Virus record (IMG/VR): IMGVR_UViG_2718218102_000002
DNA length: 42,917 nucleotides
Source of the DNA: a virus
Lineage: Duplodnaviria > Heunggongvirae > Uroviricota > Caudoviricetes
Strand: one strand, 5' to 3'
Shown here: piece after piece, positions 2,217-32,747 of the stretch
Position numbering within the stretch: position 1 is the first letter of the stretch
How the letters are laid out: each line of letters begins with the position of its first letter
Made by a program: the position numbers and the translations under genes
Notes under the pieces: generated by a model
Told to the model about the DNA's origin: nothing
What the model saw: the letters and a program-made list of their open reading frames with translations, nothing else
Databases searched by the model: none

Positions 2217-5056
2217 TATGCAAGCCTCACAATATAGTTAAATGCGATGTTTTTGACGGTGTTTTCCGCGTTACCAGCAGCGTTAACGGTGATGGTGTGT
2301 CCATGTGAGCCAATCGCAACAGAGTGCGTATGAGCACCAATACCGACAGTATGCGCGTGTGCACCCGCAGATGCTGCTGTGCCGGACAGTGAGTGTGTAT
2401 GGTTTCCTTCTGAAGATGATTTACCTACCCATTGGGAGGTGCCACTGGTTAATGAGCCACTGATACCAACCTGATTAGTCCCGCTAACTTGAGTACTCCC
2501 TGCCGGAAACATTCCAGTAGGTTGACTCCCGCTATTCGTTCTGGGCCCAGTCTGACTATGTTGGTGGGCCCCAGCTGAACTTGTAGAGCCGCTCAGACTG
2601 TGCGTATGCGCCCCGGTGTTATTCGTGGATTTAGTGCCGTAATCAAACGACGATGTGGTTTTCGTACCCAAATCCGTACTGGATGCGCTGGCGCTGTGGG
2701 TGTGCGATTTAATGCCGTCCTGTTCCTGAGACAATACGGTACGACCACTGGCGGGCTTGCCCTTAATCGTCCAGCCACGCATATCAGGGATCACGCCTGA
2801 CGGATAAGCGACTGCAAGTTTCGGGTAGGCAGATTTGTCAAAAGTCTGCCCCTGCATCAGGGCATAACCAGACGGAACGGTATCCGATGGCCACGGGATT
2901 GGTGCGCCAGGCGGATAAAACTGCTCTGATGGCGTATAGAGTGAATAAACTGTACCGTCCGTTAACCCTTCCGGCTTATTAGCAGAATATGCTGGTGACG
3001 TATGAATCGTCACGCTGGCATTACTGGTATAATCCCATTGAATATTTACACCAGTCGCATAATTTCCGATTGCAACGTAAATATCGTAAGTATCACCAGA
3101 TGTATTGACCCAGGCAAAATTTGTAAACCCTGCCGAAGTGCGCTGCCATAAAGCACCAGTAATCCCCTTCGGGTTACCATTACCTGCACGCAAAACAAGT
3201 TCAGATATACCTGCCTGTTGAGGTGAACCGACGTTATATCCAGCCCCACCAATCAACGTAATTGAAACAACAGAACTCGCCTGCGGCATGGTTACCGTTG
3301 CTAATTTGAACCAACCAGCACCACCGCTAAATGACATAGTTGTTGAGTTAAGCGTACCAATATCTTTCGGTGTCAGTGTTATATCCGCTGAAAGCGCCTT
3401 ACCATTCACCTTACGGGCAGAAGGTACCCGACCATTCGCATTGTCATTAGCTGCTTTCACTGCTTTCGGTGTCGCAGCAAGCGTTTCAGATGCGCTGTTG
3501 GTTGCACTACTGAGCTGGACAATTCCTTTTTGTGCTGTCGTAGCGTCCTGAGCGGTATATTTCCCGCTAGCCAGGTCATACGCGGCCTTAACGGCTTTTG
3601 GCGTTGCCGCCAGTGACTCGGAAGTGCTGTTAGTCGCACTGCTGAGCTGTACTATCCCCTTTTTCGTCGTGCTCGCATCCTCAAGCGCCACGGCGGATGC
3701 AATATCCTCTGCCCGTTTTGCTGCTGTCTCGGCGCGCGTTGCCGCGGATTCCGCCGTACTTTTGCTCTGAGCTGCCGCCGTCGCACTGCCAGCTGCCTCT
3801 GTCGCCTTCGTGGATGCCGTCGTGGCGCTGCCCTTCGCTGCTGACGCTTGTCTGGTCGCCTCATCTTTTGAAGCAGACGCCGATGATGCCGATGACGCCG
3901 CCGAACTGGCTGACGATGCGGCAGCCGTTTTTGAGGATTCTGCGCTGGTTTCCGACGCTTTCGCGTTCGTTTCGGATGTCTTCGCTGCGGAAGCTGACCT
4001 CGCTGCTGCCGTGGCCTGTTCAGTGGCTTCGCCAGCCTTCGTTGTGGCTGTTGAAGCGGATGATGCGGCGCTTTCTGCCGACTTTCCGGCAGCGGTGGCA
4101 CTGGCTGAGGCCTGCCCGGCATTTGTTGACGCGGCGCTGGCAGATGAGGCAGCCGCTGTTTTTGAGTCTGCTGCTGCGGAGGCACTCTGTGCTGCTGCCG
4201 TCTCAGAAGACTTAGCGTTCGTCTCGGACGTTTTTGCCGCCTTCGCGGAATTGCCTGCCGCTGTTGCCGAGGAGGCTGCACTACTGGCGCTCGAGGCTGC
4301 GCTCGTTTCTGATGATTTTGCCGCCTCTTTTGAAGCCGACGCATCTCTGGCTGAGGTGGCAGCTTCTGACGCTTTCGTGGTCGCGGTGGATGCAGAAGTG
4401 GCGGCTGATTGTTGTGACGCTGAAGCATTCGTTTCTGACGTTTTCGCCGCACCGGCACTGGTGGCCGCCGCGCTTTTTGAGGACTCTGCAGCGGCAGCAC
4501 TTTTTGATGCTTCAGTGGCCTTTGTTGATGCCGTTACTGCGCTGGAAGACGCTGACTGAGCCGACGACGCGGCCTGTCCGGCTGACGTGCTGGCTGCGCG
4601 TGCGGAGTCCGCAGCATCAGTCGCATGGGTTGCCGCCTCACGGGCTGATGTGCTGGCATCGCTGGCTGACTTCTTCGCGGCTGCCGTGTTCTGTGCCACC
4701 GCGGACGCGTTACGCGCCACCTCTTCCACCATCAGCTCAAAACGGCGCAGTGCCTCCGGACGGACATCATCCTCAGTCATGGCACCAAGAAAATCATTCA
4801 GCGTACCGGGTTGAGAATCTTCATACACGGTGATGGTCCCGGCATGTGACGGCGGGAATCCCTCCACCAACAGAATAACGCTGTACTGACCGTACTCAAC
4901 GTCCATACTGTAACGCCCGGCTTCATCCGGATTTTCAGATGCCAGCGTGTTCACCACCACCGTGGTGCTGTTACGTTTTGCTTTCAGCTGGATTGTGCAG
5001 TTCTGTACCGGTTTTCCTGTGCCGTCTTTCAGTACACCTGAAATCTTTACTGCCAT
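2216..5056 (-). CDS. stf: Side tail fiber protein Stf, with Ala/Ser-rich repeat core and His-rich C-terminal repeats
   Basis: N-terminus [20 protein letters not shown] as recalled for lambda Stf. The track start at 5062 is a GTG; the ATG at 5056 is preferred. Duplicated [12 protein letters not shown]...[11 protein letters not shown] motif and HTHS/AHxH repeats near the C-terminus. Confidence 0.9.
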
Positions 5057-5065
5057 ATTCACCCC

Positions 5066-5096
5066 ACAAAAAAGCCCGCCTGAAACGGCGGGCTGT
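5066..5096 (-). terminator. Intrinsic terminator downstream of lom
   Basis: On the minus strand: gcccgcc-gtttca-ggcgggc followed by tttttt, in the lom-stf gap. Confidence 0.55.
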
Positions 5097-5120
5097 CATA
5101 ACACTGTGTTACCTGGCTAA

Positions 5121-5720
5121 TCAGAACTTATAACCGACACCCACGATGAAACCGTCAGTGCGCCAGTCACCACTGCCGGAACCTTCATAAGCAATATCAA
5201 TGGCCACGGATTCGGTCGGGTTAAACTGCACGCCAGCCCCCCACGCCAGAGACGTGTTGCTGTGGCGACCGTCATCACTTCCGGTCAGCACATCATGCGT
5301 TTTCCCCTTGTTGTCAGTTACGCGGAGATAATCCCCGGAAAAAGTCGACACACGGCTGTAAGCCACGCCCGCCATCGCATACGCACTGAACCATTCATTC
5401 ACGCGCACAGAGGGCCCCGCCATTACGCTGAACCAGCGGTTACGAACGGAATCTTCATGCCAGCGGGTATCGCTGTAACGGGTAAGCTGGCGATTCTTGT
5501 CTCCTGCATAGCTGAAAGACGTCACCATCCCCAGTGTGTCCGTAAACTCATAACGGTATTTCACGTTAATCCCGTTCAGATCATCGCTGCCGGGAACGTT
5601 CGTCGAGACATGAAGATACCCCGCGCTCAGCGTGGACTGATGTTCAGACGCCCATGCAGGCGTACCGGATACGGCCAGACAAATGGCTGCGGACAAAATG
5701 GCGGCATAAAGTTTACGCAT
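5121..5720 (-). CDS. lom: Outer membrane protein Lom (Ail/Lom family)
   Basis: 199 aa with signal peptide (…AVSGTPAWA) and C-terminal GYKF beta-barrel ending; sits between J and stf as in lambda. Confidence 0.9.
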
Positions 5721-5743
5721 AATTACCTCTCGCTTTTCTGCAA

Positions 5744-5769
5744 TAAAAAAGGCGTCATTTCTGACGCCC
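5744..5769 (-). terminator. Putative intrinsic terminator downstream of J
   Basis: Minus strand: ggcgtca-gaaa-tgacgcc followed by ttttttatt. Confidence 0.5.
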
Positions 5770-5786
5770 GTTATGGGTTATAAAAT

Positions 5787-9188
<3,402 letters not shown>

Positions 9189-26448: not shown

Positions 26449-26742
26449 ATGAAAAAAATGTTGTTTTCTGCCGCTCTGGCAATGCTTATTACAGGATGTG
26501 CTCAACAGACGTTTACTGTTGGAAACAAACCTACAGCAGTAACACCAAAGGAAACCATCACCCATCATTTCTTCGTTTCGGGAATTGGGCAGAAGAAAAC
26601 TGTCGATGCAGCAAAAATTTGTGGTGGTGCAGAAAATGTTGTTAAAACAGAAACCCAGCAAACATTCGTAAATGGATTGCTCGGTTTTATTACTTTAGGC
26701 ATTTATACTCCGCTGGAAGCGCGTGTGTATTGCTCACAATAA
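26449..26742 (+). CDS. bor: Bor lipoprotein (serum resistance)
   Basis: 97 aa, starting MKKMLFSAALAMLITGCAQQ; opposite strand to the late genes, between Rz and cos as in lambda. Confidence 0.9.
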   Translation: MKKMLFSAALAMLITGCAQQTFTVGNKPTAVTPKETITHHFFVSGIGQKKTVDAAKICGGAENVVKTETQQTFVNGLLGFITLGIYTPLEARVYCSQ

Positions 26743-26773: not shown

Positions 26774-27235
26774 CTATCTGCACTGCTCATTAATATACTT
26801 CTGGGTTCCTTCCAGTTGTTTTTGCATAGTGATCAGCCTCTCTCTGAGGGTGAAATAATCCCGTTCAGCGGTGTCTGCCAGTCGGGGGGAGGCTGCATTA
26901 TCCACGCCGGAGGCGGTGGTGGCTTCACGCACTGACTGACAGACTGCTTTGATGTGCAACCGACGACGACCAGCGGCAACATCATCACGCAGAGCATCAT
27001 TTTCAGCTTTCGCATCAGCTAACTCCTTCGTGTATTTTGCATCGAGCGCAGCAACATCACGCTGACGCATCTGCATGTCAGTAATTGCCGCGTTCGCCAG
27101 CTTCAGTTCTCTGGCATTTTTGTCGCGCTGGGCTTTGTAGGTAATGGCGTTATTACGGTAATGATTAACAGCCCATGACAGGCAGACGATGATGCAGATA
27201 ACCAGAGCGGAGATAATCGCGGTTACTCTGTTCAT
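26774..27235 (-). CDS. Rz: Spanin inner-membrane subunit Rz
   Basis: 153 aa, starting [26 protein letters not shown]. Confidence 0.9.
26833..27015 (-). CDS. Rz1: Spanin outer-membrane lipoprotein Rz1, embedded in Rz in the +1 frame
   Basis: 60 aa with lipobox (VVVGC) and a proline run (PPPPP), lying wholly inside Rz. Confidence 0.85.
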
Positions 27236-27729
27236 TGCTGACCCCACAAACAGATTTCACGCTCAATCTCACGACGAGTCATGAGACCTTTCCATTGCTT
27301 ACCGCCAGCATATGTCCAGCGACGTAGCTGATCACATGAGCCTTTGATATCGCCCTGGTTTATTTTGCGAAGAAGCGTCGATGTTCTGAAATTACCAGCA
27401 CCCACGTTGTAAACGAATGAGTAAAGAGCGCCGCGCGTTGTTTCCGGTATATCGACTGTGATGTACGGGTTAATTTGTCTGGCGACAGTGGCAAGGTCTT
27501 TATTCAGGAGTGCTTTGCATTCTGCTTTGGTATACGTTTTACCGAGCATGATGTCTTTTCCTGTATGCCCGTGACATACAGTCCATACACCAACAATATC
27601 TTTGTATGGTATGTAGCTGACACCTTCCAGACCATCGTTACCACTTGGGCCAGTGATTAACACTGATGCTATAGCAATTGCTCCGCCACCAATAGCAGCA
27701 GCAACGGCTTTTCGTAATGATGGAGGCAT
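27232..27729 (-). CDS. R: SAR endolysin (T4-lysozyme fold, phage 21 R-like)
   Basis: Gly/Ala-rich signal-anchor-release N-terminus ([18 protein letters not shown]) followed by a lysozyme E…D…T catalytic pattern. Confidence 0.85.
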
Positions 27730-27944
27730 TATTCACCTCTCGCAGCCTTGCGCTTATCTTCTTTAATCTTGAAATAAAGGTTTGTCAGGTACGTCAGCAG
27801 GCCAAATACCAGGCTACCCAGCACACCTATTGCCGCCCACTGTGAGGGCGTGACTTTATCGAGCAACTGTAAAAACCAGTACCCGGCACTACCTGCTGAG
27901 GTACCATAGGCGACACCCGTTGTTAACTTATCCATGGATTTCAT
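27729..27944 (-). CDS. S: Pinholin (phage 21 S-like) with dual-start MKSM motif
   Basis: 71 aa with two TM segments; MKSMDK start allows the 71-aa antiholin and 68-aa holin forms. Confidence 0.85.
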
Positions 27945-28073
27945 AACCCCACCTCGCAGACAAAGCGGGTGTAAATTAAGGGGATACTACGTATCGCAAT
28001 AAAGGCAGAAACGTAACAGATTCGGAGTCAGTGAATAACTCAGGTATTGGGTTATCAGCTAATATCGAGACTC

Positions 28074-28106
28074 AAAAAATGGAAAAACCCGCTCGACGGC
28101 GGGTTT
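28074..28106 (-). terminator. Putative intrinsic terminator upstream of the lysis cassette (tR'-like position)
   Basis: Minus-strand hairpin aaacccgc-cgtcga-gcgggttt followed by ttccatttttt, about 130 bp upstream of the S start. Confidence 0.45.
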
Positions 28107-28532
28107 AAGCTGTGTGACGAAGTAACCACTCTTAACAGCATAACCAATTTTTTACGTACGTAAACTACTAAATGATATTTGTGAGAATGCCACCGAGTGT
28201 TCAAAACACCACCACAAATGCATAAGAAAACTTCAACAAATAACCAGTTAATAATTTCCGATGTTATTTTTAGTTTGTTTAAATTAAGCTAAAGAATTAT
28301 AGAGCACTTATAAATAAGTGCCATTAATATAAATTAGCTAATAGATTTATTTTTGTTCAGACAAGAGCCATGAATAGGATTAGATAGAAAAGGTTCCGAT
28401 AAAAATAGAGATCTACTTCACAAATTAAATGAGAAACTAAAACTTACATCTTGAAATAATCACATTGATTAGATGAATATTTATCGCGCAGTGACATCAT
28501 TTTTTAATAATAGTTCAAAAAAAGGGCGTACA

Positions 28533-29615
28533 ATGAAAAAATTAACAGTGGCAATTTCTGCTGTAGCTGCATCAGTACTGATGGCGATGTCTGCTCAGGC
28601 AGCTGAAATTTATAATAAAGACAGTAACAAGCTGGATCTATACGGGAAAGTTAATGCCAAGCACTACTTCTCCTCTAATGATGCAGATGATGGTGATACT
28701 ACTTATGCCCGTCTTGGCTTCAAAGGTGAAACCCAAATCAACGATCAACTGACTGGTTTCGGTCAGTGGGAATATGAATTCAAAGGCAACCGTGCTGAAT
28801 CTCAAGGTTCTTCCAAAGACAAAACCCGTCTTGCATTTGCAGGCCTGAAATTTGGTGATTACGGCTCAATCGATTACGGCCGTAACTACGGTGTAGCATA
28901 CGACATCGGTGCGTGGACTGACGTTCTGCCAGAATTCGGTGGTGATACCTGGACCCAAACAGATGTGTTCATGACTGGTCGCACTACTGGTGTTGCAACT
29001 TATCGTAACAACGACTTCTTTGGTCTGGTCGATGGCCTGAACTTTGCTGCTCAGTATCAGGGTAAAAATGACCGCACTGACGTAACTGAAGCCAATGGTG
29101 ATGGTTTCGGTTTCTCCACTACTTATGAGTATGAAGGATTCGGCGTGGGTGCAACCTATGCTAAATCAGATCGCACTGACGGTCAGGTCGCCTATGGTAA
29201 GAGCAAATTCAATGCCTCCGGCAAAAATGCGGAAGTATGGGCTGCAGGCCTGAAATATGATGCGAACAATATCTATCTGGCTACCACATATTCTGAAACT
29301 CAGAATATGACCGTTTTTGGTAATAACCATATTGCAAACAAAGCACAAAACTTTGAAGCAGTAGCACAATATCAGTTTGACTTCGGTCTGCGTCCATCTG
29401 TTGCTTACCTTCAGTCAAAAGGTAAAGACCTTGGTGTTCATGGTGACCGAGACTTAGTCAAGTATGTCGATGTCGGTGCTACTTACTACTTTAATAAAAA
29501 CATGTCCACTTTTGTTGATTACAAAATCAACTTAATTGACGATAGTAAGTTTACCAAAACAGCTGGTATTGATACCGACGACATCGTCGCTGTAGGTCTG
29601 GTTTATCAGTTCTAA
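28533..29615 (+). CDS. Outer membrane porin, OmpC/OmpF/NmpC (Lc-like) family
   Basis: Start set at MKKLTVAIS with a cleavable signal peptide; classic porin N-terminus [16 protein letters not shown] and C-terminal VGLVYQF. Confidence 0.85.
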
Positions 29616-29632
29616 TCTGACTTACGAAAAAG

Positions 29633-29668
29633 ATATGTTGCGGGAGGCTTTGCCTCCGCAACATATAA
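29633..29668 (+). terminator. Palindromic hairpin downstream of the porin gene
   Basis: atatgttgcgggaggc-ttt-gcctccgcaacatata; no clear U-tract. Confidence 0.4.
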
Positions 29669-29743
29669 GTGGAGCCCTCAAGCCACTTCCTTTAGAAGCA
29701 CTACCTTGCTTCTTACTATATAAACCTTCTGTTATATATTACC

Positions 29744-29769
29744 CTTTATTTTGGGGGCGTTTCCACGCC
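29744..29769 (+). terminator. Putative intrinsic terminator
   Basis: ggggcgt-ttcc-acgcccc followed by atttttaa. Confidence 0.45.
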
Positions 29770-29803
29770 CCATTTTTAATAACTTTTAGTAAACAATTGC
29801 ATA

Positions 29804-30187
29804 TCAATTAGAATTATTAGCAACGATATCCATATCTAACCGGATATCTAATGCCATTAACATCCCTTCAATTATGCCCTCAGCCTTCTGTAACCTTTTC
29901 CCGATATAACCATCCGAGCAGCAATGCTTACTTGCCAGTGACATGAATGTCATACCACATACATAATAATCTACTAATAAATCGTGTAAATCGCTGTTGT
30001 TCTTTTTCAGACGGGCCATGCACCCGCAAATGATCATCGCGTCATCGTCACAACATTGCGGGCGAGATTTTACTTTTGAAGGAATTAATCCCTTAAAACC
30101 GGCGGCAATGGACGACCAGGTCACATCTTCATGATTATTAGCCGCCCACGCACCCCAACGCTCAAGAACCATCTGAATATCACGCAT
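29804..30187 (-). CDS. Late-gene antiterminator Q, DLP12 QuuD/phage 82-type
   Basis: Start set at [18 protein letters not shown], giving 127 aa. Cys-rich ([18 protein letters not shown]) and sits just upstream of the late region. Confidence 0.75.
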
Positions 30188-30409
30188 CAACTTACTCCAC
30201 AAAAATCAGACCAGAACGCCAATTACAAGCAAAAATCAACAAAACAGTATTAGTTGATTGTTATCTCTGACTTCATACTCCTGTTCCTGTCAGGGTTTTG
30301 GCGTAATTCTTCAGTATTCGGTAATCGGTCAAAACAGAACCGGGGAAACGATATAAGCGCAGACGCCCCCAGCGGTGGCGAAGAAGTTCTGCCATATTAA
30401 ACTCAAACA

Positions 30410-31944: not shown

Positions 31945-32322
31945 ATGACCAACAAAGAAAACAAAGATAAATATATTAACAAGTTCAAGAAAGAGCTTTC
32001 AAAATATATACAACCAACTGCTGGAGTGGACATTCAATTATTTAACTCTAAGGATGGTGGTGGTGTAATTAAAGCCACTTTGAATAGAAGTGGAAAAAGA
32101 AAATCATCTATTGCAGGTAATTTTACTAAATTAGGTGAGGCAATTACCTCGAGTGGGCAGAGGGTTTTTGGTGGTGATCTATCAAATGTAAATTTTTACG
32201 GAACAAATACGATTTTTGATGGAGATACAATATTTTTAATTAAATCACCTGATTCAGAGGAGTGGTCATCACAAAAAGCTTCCAAAGACGTAGAGGGAAT
32301 CGTATTTGGAGGGAAAAAATGA
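31945..32322 (+). CDS. Hypothetical soluble protein (AT-rich opposite-strand cassette, gene 1)
   Basis: 125 aa, Lys/Gly-rich, no predicted TM segment; very low GC compared with flanking phage genes. Confidence 0.5.
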   Translation: MTNKENKDKYINKFKKELSKYIQPTAGVDIQLFNSKDGGGVIKATLNRSGKRKSSIAGNFTKLGEAITSSGQRVFGGDLSNVNFYGTNTIFDGDTIFLIKSPDSEEWSSQKASKDVEGIVFGGKK

Positions 32323-32747
32323 TTAACATTACTACTAAGGATGGCACTCAAGTCAGTGGTGAAGTAAGAGATCTAGTAATTCTTCTTGAAACTGATGGAA
32401 AAACGGTGTCTGATTATTTGCAGCCAATCCCTCCCAAAAAAGATACACACTGGAGCATGATTTTCATTCCGGTAGCAATTTATATACTACTTAATCTTGT
32501 ATACATTATTGCTCACCCATTATTTCCTGAAAAATATCTAAAAACATCAACATCTATATTTCTATTCATTTCCTTCATATTAAGTGCAATAGTAGCATAT
32601 TTTGTTTTCCATAAGCATAAATCTGCCACTCTATCCATATGCAGCTTAGTGTTCTTAGTGTTAATTGTAGGTGCTAACGTAGGGTTTATCAGTTACAGCG
32701 ACCTAACACAAAAAGCGACGCAAAAATTAGATAGTTTGTCTAAATAA
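32319..32747 (+). CDS. Hypothetical membrane protein, about 3 TM helices (AT-rich cassette, gene 2)
   Basis: Start set at MINITTKDG, with GGAGGG Shine-Dalgarno and ATGA overlap with the gene 1 stop. Soluble N-terminal ~45 aa, then three hydrophobic segments. Confidence 0.5.
   Translation: MINITTKDGTQVSGEVRDLVILLETDGKTVSDYLQPIPPKKDTHWSMIFIPVAIYILLNLVYIIAHPLFPEKYLKTSTSIFLFISFILSAIVAYFVFHKHKSATLSICSLVFLVLIVGANVGFISYSDLTQKATQKLDSLSK

Follow-up and report, generated by a model that had tools for sequence, protein, structure and literature searches.

The stretch of DNA analysed here (the window; 42,917 nucleotides, IMG/VR record IMGVR_UViG_2718218102_000002) reads as an E. coli lambdoid prophage, and the features of the region between its antiterminator and lysis genes are collected in Table 1. 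The antiterminator gene Q forms the end of the early right operon, where it is preceded on the same strand by ybcO, rusA and ylcG. Its product is distantly homologous to Q21 (structures 6p18 and 6jnx; E = 4e-8), and DNA identical to the window Q is annotated as quuD in RefSeq. Beyond Q lies an intact porin gene, which shows 91% identity to Lc of PA-2 and 81% identity to NmpC of P7, and then the late genes, starting with the pinholin gene (S).

Table 1. Features of the Q-porin-S region of the window. Positions refer to the whole window; entries for pR' and tR' are predictions.
Feature	Position	Strand	Remarks
SAR-type lysozyme gene	27232-27729	-	followed by Rz
S21-type pinholin gene essD	27729-27944	-	first late gene; PF04971, E = 2e-35
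Putative tR', intrinsic terminator of the short pR' leader	28074-28106	-	stem-loop AAACCCGCCGTCGAGCGGGTTT (28106-28085), then TTCCATTTTTT to 28074 (pattern scan)
Inverted repeat GTGGTTACTTCGTCAC	28114-28129	-	+2 to +17; candidate pause element, qut or RNA hairpin
Predicted late transcription start (A)	~28130	-	by homology to Sp5, 7 nt after the -10 hexamer
Putative pR' -10 hexamer TATGCT	28142-28137	-	16 nt after the -35 hexamer
Putative pR' -35 hexamer TTTACG	28164-28159	-	inside the perfect palindrome TTTACGTACGTAAA (28151-28164)
AT-rich region upstream of the porin gene	28165-28532	+	forms a divergent control region with pR'; GC 0.24-0.32 (28125-28574)
Porin gene, OmpC/NmpC/Lc type	28533-29615	+	opposite to phage genes; PF00267, E = 1.9e-151
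Long hairpin just 3' of the porin stop	29625-29670		T-run CTTTTTCG on the minus strand only; -22.3 kcal/mol, z = -4.25 (minus strand)
Intrinsic terminator of the porin cassette	29754-29780	+	GGGGCGTTTCCACGCCCC, then ATTTTTAAT; -13.8 kcal/mol, z = -3.15
Q antiterminator gene, quuD type	29804-30187	-	127 aa; Pfam PF06530, E = 6.7e-54

By comparison with other genomes, this layout is ordinary and common. Of 5426 complete E. coli genomes, 2392 contained the 2.6-kb stretch from Q through the porin gene to S at a coverage of at least 80%, with the annotations quuD, an ompC-type porin, essD and rrrD. The same region is present in viable or isolated temperate phages (ev017, 2G7b, ev207, mEp332, the PhiR series and 434B), and the qsr' region of DLP12, with IS5 inside the porin gene, was captured by a viable derivative of phage 434. 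Its presence in isolated temperate phages and in the viable 434 derivative indicates that the Q-porin-S layout works in living phages.

Other reversed genes occur in the window as well. A Bor lipoprotein gene (26449-26742, plus strand; PF06291, E = 1e-30) lies directly after Rz, as in lambda. Two plus-strand ORFs at 31945-32747, encoding 125 aa and a predicted membrane protein of 161 aa, are reversed in the nin region upstream of Q; neither matched a significant Pfam family, and the pair may be another cargo cassette. The only Rfam match of the window was a full-length match to IS009 (RF02111; 221 bits, E = 3.7e-54) at 1675-1873 on the minus strand, and the search returned no family in the Q-porin-S region.

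The earlier note on this DNA had asked where the late promoter pR' lies relative to the porin insertion. It had pointed to a terminator-like hairpin on the minus strand upstream of the pinholin gene, with Q 1.7 kb away on the far side of the porin gene, and had offered two options: namely a pR' next to Q, with late transcripts running antisense through the porin gene, or a promoter in the AT-rich spacer at 28110-28530. The hairpin proved to be real: it was recovered by the scan and, folded alone, reached -12.0 kcal/mol (z = -2.55), with 3 of 200 shuffled sequences folding as well. The distance from the Q stop to the hairpin agreed with the note, and the spacer is indeed AT-rich (Table 1). It should be noted that three terminator-like sites were found within 27700-30300 versus 2.2 +/- 1.7 in shuffled sequences. 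As this count is not above chance, the case for a tR' function depends on conservation among relatives.

For this, relatives of Q were gathered by Q protein homology alone (68-87% identity), with one genome per species. They came from Citrobacter, Trabulsiella, Pantoea, Xenorhabdus, Providencia, Morganella, Shigella and O157. Thirty loci had an intact Q and sufficient flanking sequence, and each of them contained exactly one copy of the 15-mer TTTACGWWCGTAAAA downstream of Q and on the same strand. Outside these 30, the 15-mer was missing from P7, from two short contigs, from a locus interrupted by IS1, and from two loci whose Q either belongs to another family or is only 37% identical. Measured from the Q stop, the 15-mer starts at -13 to +28 nt in 24 loci, at +139 in one, at +2337 in one and at +2855 in the DLP12-type loci with IS5. 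The window has a single exact copy, at 28164-28150 of the minus strand; it starts at +1639, in the spacer that separates the pinholin gene from the porin start.

The 15-mer is the beginning of a longer block, which in almost all relatives has the order TTTACG(T/A)(A/T)CGTAAAA, about seven variable bases, TAnnnT, G(T/A)TAAGAGTGG…CAC and a GC-rich hairpin with a T-run. When 21 divergent sequences were aligned, TTTACG and CGTAAAA proved invariant, as did T1, A2 and T6 within the -10 hexamer, and all of these positions are intact in the window. There, the whole block extends from 28164 to 28074 on the minus strand, so that it ends with the flagged hairpin. From the -35 hexamer through the terminator it is nearly identical to the block that adjoins Q in a porin-less E. 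coli/Shigella prophage, and the match stops no more than 10 nt upstream of the -35 hexamer.

The second option of the earlier note is thus the one that the data favour, as the block in the spacer at 28164-28137 is the same one that adjoins Q in porin-less relatives. TTTACG and TATGCT agree with the consensus at only 8 of 12 positions, and the candidate fell below the threshold of the generic promoter scan, which missed it and gave only chance-level sites; the homologous block was what located it. By homology alone, the window would have a sigma-70 late promoter with a candidate Q-binding element, and the palindrome TTTACGTACGTAAA over the -35 hexamer is likely to be the site at which Q binds.

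The block has an annotated counterpart in phage 933W. In the GenBank record of this phage, the homologous stretch TTTACG…TATCAT is labelled "pR'; putative late promoter", with TATCAT as the -10 hexamer. The record also contains two possible terminators, one of which is the hairpin homologous to the window tR', and calls its own Q "similar to Q protein of bacteriophage H19B and DLP12".

For the nearly identical prophage Sp5, the primary start of pR' and the 3' end of its transcript were mapped 258 nt apart (Sy et al. 2020, PMC7547250). An A stands 7 nt after TATCAT in the Sakai sequence, and its distance to the final T of the second terminator is exactly 258 nt; this TATCAT, the homologue of the window -10 hexamer, was found by the scan. 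The placement of the start uses the 258-nt spacing and is free of the genome-version offset of Sakai, which we take to be 142 nt. Because the block is homologous to the annotated pR' of 933W and the Sp5 mapping fits, pR' of the window should lie at 28164-28137 and start at about 28130, with the flagged hairpin as its tR'. The start site, the sigma factor, the binding of Q and the efficiency of the terminator in the window are all predicted from these homologues. The positions, the conservation and the borders of the insertion were established by the sequence comparisons themselves.

933W and Sp5 carry a Q of the Q933 type, whose N-terminal 120 residues are about 84% identical to those of the window Q. 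The shared elements include the TTTACG -35 hexamer, the palindrome TTTACG-WW-CGTAAA, the 16-nt spacing, a TAnnnT -10 hexamer, the start region AAGAGTGGTTAC and, from about +24 to +52, a GC hairpin followed by its T-run. The two systems differ in that the -35 hexamer of 933W and Sp5 overlaps the end of a 144-aa Q gene (gap -13), whereas the window Q has 127 aa and is separated from the block by 1639 nt. A second terminator is present at +258 in these phages, while the window has only one. Their tRNA and stx cargo is located downstream of pR' and tR', where it is read by Q-modified polymerase, whereas the cargo of the window lies upstream of pR'.

Two tandem terminators were seen after pR' in the Stx phages, at 869-896 and 1073-1103 in Sp5 (sequence L037) and at 664-686 and 867-895 in 933W (sequence L158). 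The published 3' end of Sp5 is at the second of them, and the first hairpin, at +24 to +52, is homologous to the hairpin of the window. This first hairpin may be leaky, or its short product may escape capture.

The comparison with DLP12 that the earlier note had called for gave the same answer. The DLP12 qsr' region (quuD-nmpC::IS5-essD-rrrD-rzpD) and the lc region of PA-2 have the same gene order and orientation as the window at 88-94% identity, with an identical promoter block and the terminator in the same position. The DLP12 region of K-12 differs in that IS5 interrupts the porin gene and widens the gap to 2855 nt. A paper on DLP12 (PMC7918800) cites work that attributes Q-dependent control to the DNA preceding essD, and its authors employed this DNA as an active reporter. 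A literature search for quuD together with essD yielded nothing useful.

The conservation among relatives also supports the terminator. A hairpin with a T-run was found in about 24 of 27 distinct relatives, ending between about +42 and +116, in most cases at +42 to +64 and in a few at about +95 to +116. The stems themselves differ, and at least five are unrelated, namely AAACCCGCC/GGCGGGTTT, AACCTTGC/GCAAGGTT, GACCTCGCC/GGCGGGGTT, GAAACCCCG/CGGGGTTTT and AGCCTCAC/GTGGGGCT. The fact that structure and position are kept while the stem sequence varies indicates a working terminator. As in a Q-dependent cassette, an intrinsic terminator thus lies between the promoter and the first late gene, at 28106-28074. 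The pattern scan detected no second terminator before S in the window. A single terminator, possibly a leaky one, fits the low-level expression of the DLP12 lysis genes mentioned in PMC7918800. In the PA-2 sequence, the 3' arm of the tR' stem reads GCTGG versus GCGGG in the window and in DLP12, which would weaken the hairpin; this may be a real variant or a sequencing error of 1986.

The leader between the predicted start and this terminator would be about 51-57 nt long, and the start codon of S lies 186 nt after the predicted start. The earlier note had likened the hairpin to tR' after the lambda 6S leader. The tR'-type terminator stands, as its position is kept in relatives, whereas the 6S-like leader does not, since lambda has one of about 194 nt. 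The whole leader does not fold unusually well (z = -1.38). Nor does it resemble the StxS or lambda 6S type of leader sRNA, as the window has neither the second terminator nor the segment of about 200 nt that gives the 74-nt StxS fragment.

Within the leader, the inverted repeat at +2 to +17 is present in most relatives, where 83% of the cells pair. Covariation within it did not reach significance (138 of 500 shuffles scored no lower). The repeat has been labelled in different ways: "qut" lies inside this early transcribed repeat in the 933W record, and a CRP site is placed on it in the PA-2 record. In the latter (J02580, of 1986; sequence L005), the CRP-binding site at 1730-1750 corresponds to window positions 28130-28110, which is exactly +1 to +21 of the predicted leader, and it coincides with the GTGG…CCAC inverted repeat. 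No conserved TAnnnT that could serve as a sigma-dependent pause element stood out at +1 to +20 across the family alignment.

The borders of the porin insertion were determined by comparison with relatives. On the left, nucleotide homology to other Q genes ends at about 29828-29827, in codon 120, and the Q tail diverges after residue 120 (…MDIVANNSN in the window versus …MDRYV… in relatives). On the right, the border lies at 28165-28175, no more than about 10 nt upstream of the -35 hexamer. These borders delimit what appears to be a porin cassette of 1.66 kb (about 28165-29827), inserted between Q codon 120 and the -35 hexamer. Like a moron, it has its own terminator and is present or absent between the same two flanks in related phages. 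In every porin-bearing locus examined, the porin gene lies between Q and the block, which upholds the suggestion of the earlier note that the insertion split the original Q-pR' unit.

The part of the cassette upstream of the porin gene, 28165-28532, is not homologous to the sequence between Q and pR' in relatives that lack the porin gene. The PA-2 record places one or more CRP sites in this region, and no plus-strand promoter above the scan threshold was found in it. A segment of about 370 bp (28204-28573), comprising the porin 5' region and first codons, shows 82-84% identity to unannotated places in some E. coli chromosomes.

The 3' flank of the porin gene bears on the first option of the earlier note, according to which pR' and the Q-utilisation site would lie within 29616-29803 on the minus strand, late transcripts would run antisense through the porin gene and 28106-28074 would be a secondary terminator. 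This flank does contain something resembling a promoter, leader and terminator: a weak -10-like TAATAT at 29741-29736, TATAGT 15 nt further on, and the strong hairpin with its minus-strand T-run at 29670-29625. However, the sequence from 29616 to about 29790 is homologous to the nmpC 3' flank in the plasmid prophage P7, which has neither Q nor the motif. As it travels with the porin gene in the Q-less P7, we assign this sequence to the porin cassette, which removes the sole candidate for a Q-adjacent promoter. The apparent unit at 29741-29625 (TAATAT, TATAGT and the hairpin with CTTTTTCG) was dropped for this reason. Moreover, no copy of the family motif was present in 29616-29790 even with two mismatches allowed, the scan showed no minus-strand promoter-like site there, and the block that trails Q in all relatives sits at 28164-28074 instead. 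We therefore regard a pR' adjacent to Q as scarcely credible in this phage.

The hairpins of this flank have counterparts elsewhere. The terminator at 29754-29780 is kept 3' of nmpC in P7 with a different loop. PA-2 and DLP12 share the stem of the long hairpin at 29625-29670; P7 retains it in part, with a degenerate T-run. This long hairpin could stop early transcripts leaving Q, which would otherwise run antisense into the porin gene.

Taken together, the results make it highly likely that the late regulatory unit of the window is intact but displaced, with pR' and tR' just upstream of the lysis genes and cut off from Q by the porin cassette. In the lysogen, pR' would fire with sigma-70 polymerase and, without Q, the short leader would stop at tR'. 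Q made from the early operon 1.6 kb away would act in trans at the palindrome and promoter. On induction, polymerase loaded with Q at pR' would pass tR' and continue into S, R, Rz and the morphogenesis genes. The reversed porin gene, with its own AT-rich upstream region and terminator, would stay outside the late unit and be transcribed divergently from the shared spacer. Since pR' is placed downstream of the porin cassette, late transcripts are not expected to cross the porin gene in antisense. In a textbook cassette Q adjoins pR'; as Q is expected to act in trans, its separation here would be a variant of layout and not a functional failure.

Two other proposals keep the late control region upstream of essD and interpret it differently. 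According to the first, the promoter lies at the same site and is used mainly by RpoE together with Q, not by sigma-70. According to PMC7918800, which refers to Rueggeberg et al. (2013, 2015), the SRRz operon of DLP12 is controlled by RpoE as well as by a Q-type antiterminator. The conserved hexamers are nevertheless of the sigma-70 type, TTTACG-16-TAnnnT, with T1, A2 and T6 invariant across genera, and the homologous promoter of Sp5 reads as an ordinary late promoter that starts 7 nt after the -10 hexamer. In addition, known Q proteins load onto sigma-70-paused complexes, and a genomic SELEX screen (PMC5493296) lists the essD spacer in its RpoS table and not in its RpoE table. We consider the predominant use of RpoE unlikely.

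The second proposal is that the block is a decayed relic, that S is no longer controlled by Q and is driven by other promoters of the spacer, and that the hairpin is incidental or a leaky attenuator. The nmpC/essD spacer of K-12, which corresponds to 28165-28532 of the window, has been classed as a "promoter island" in which many starts are possible (PMC3661553), and a SELEX peak of the sigma-S holoenzyme lies between insH and essD in K-12 (PMC5493296). A second promoter-like site, ATGGCA-17-TATAAT, is present at 28324-28296 on the minus strand of the window, and the A-rich tract found upstream of the -35 hexamer in relatives has been lost. Against decay, the same block, identical or one base off, is carried by plaque-forming or inducible phages with the Q-porin-S layout, and not one of the family-invariant positions has changed in the window. 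A relic is accordingly very improbable, and an intact but displaced pR'-tR' unit under the control of Q remains the preferred reading.

With this reading, the window would be a member of the 933W/DLP12-type Q-pR' system that differs from the textbook cassette only by the cargo between Q and pR'. In lambda, pR' lies close behind Q. Like lambda pR'-6S RNA-tR', the window would have a promoter with a short, terminated leader and would rely on Q for readthrough into S, whereas the lambda Q belongs to an unrelated protein family and its leader of about 194 nt compares with one of about 55 nt in the window. The Q21-pR' system (6P18, 6JNX) is closer in its protein, a distant homologue that binds between or over the promoter elements, loads on paused polymerase and suppresses terminators. 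Its binding element is a direct repeat, TGAGCA at -21 and -13, whereas the candidate element of the window is a 14-bp palindrome over the -35 hexamer.

The arrangement is essentially known for the DLP12, PA-2 and 933W family: the 933W record already annotates the block, the lysis operon of DLP12 is reportedly under Q control from its own upstream region, and many database entries have the identical sequence. The result thus clarifies a system that is already known and is no discovery, and only the survey of the Q-to-pR' junction described below and the palindromic candidate Q site are mildly new. The position of pR' matters because it decides which prophage cargo Q switches on at induction. 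The Shiga toxin genes lie downstream of pR' and are switched on in this way, while cargo upstream of pR', such as the porin gene, would be expressed independently in the lysogen. Correct placement of pR' also avoids the mis-annotation of antisense late transcription over the porin gene, and it predicts that a short leader RNA is made constitutively wherever E. coli strains carry the Q-porin-S module, as many do.

To describe the junction more widely, 120 IMG/VR viral contigs with the promoter block were surveyed. A Q homologue was located upstream of the block and on the same strand in 106 of the 106 contigs with upstream DNA. The gap from the Q stop to the block was -13 to +46 nt in 36 loci, where Q and pR' are contiguous, and 779-1061 nt in 11 loci with same-strand cargo. 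In 64 loci, the gap of 1521-1675 nt held a reverse-oriented porin gene, in three variants down to 61% identity. Four loci with gaps of 1700-3308 nt were various, one of them having the porin gene plus IS5. Contiguity of Q and pR' was thus seen in 24 of 30 loci of the protein-homology set and in 36 of 106 of the IMG/VR set, and the rest carried the porin gene or other cargo. At least six non-porin kinds of cargo were seen in all, among them an Rce1-like CAAX protease, a P22-type antirepressor, and proteins of the DnaD_N/HTH and ORF6N types.

As varied cargo occupies it across the surveyed contigs, the Q-to-pR' junction is a recurrent insertion site. The range of its cargo may include the three porin variants, ORF6N and antirepressor-like proteins, a CAAX-type protease, DnaD-like proteins, membrane proteins and a large ATPase pair. 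A broader proposal combines two claims: that the junction is a dedicated cargo slot of the Q933/QuuD lineage, which holds cargo outside the Q-driven late operon, and that TTTACGWWCGTAAA is a two-fold symmetric Q site. We put this joint proposal forward only tentatively and consider it rather doubtful as a whole. If it were true, reversed genes in the slot would escape head-on late transcription, in contrast to the stx and tRNA cargo downstream of pR'-tR'. The invariant 14-bp palindrome TTTACGWWCGTAAA over the -35 hexamer would then imply a loading geometry unlike that of the Q21 direct-repeat site.

Two of the inserts are of separate note. In the Citrobacter braakii locus (L016), positions 3891-6227 contain three reverse-oriented ORFs without a Pfam match, including one for a membrane protein of 345 aa. 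The 3.3-kb insert of the IMG/VR contig L055 encodes a pair of proteins of 517 aa and 370 aa, which looks like an ATPase-based defence system.
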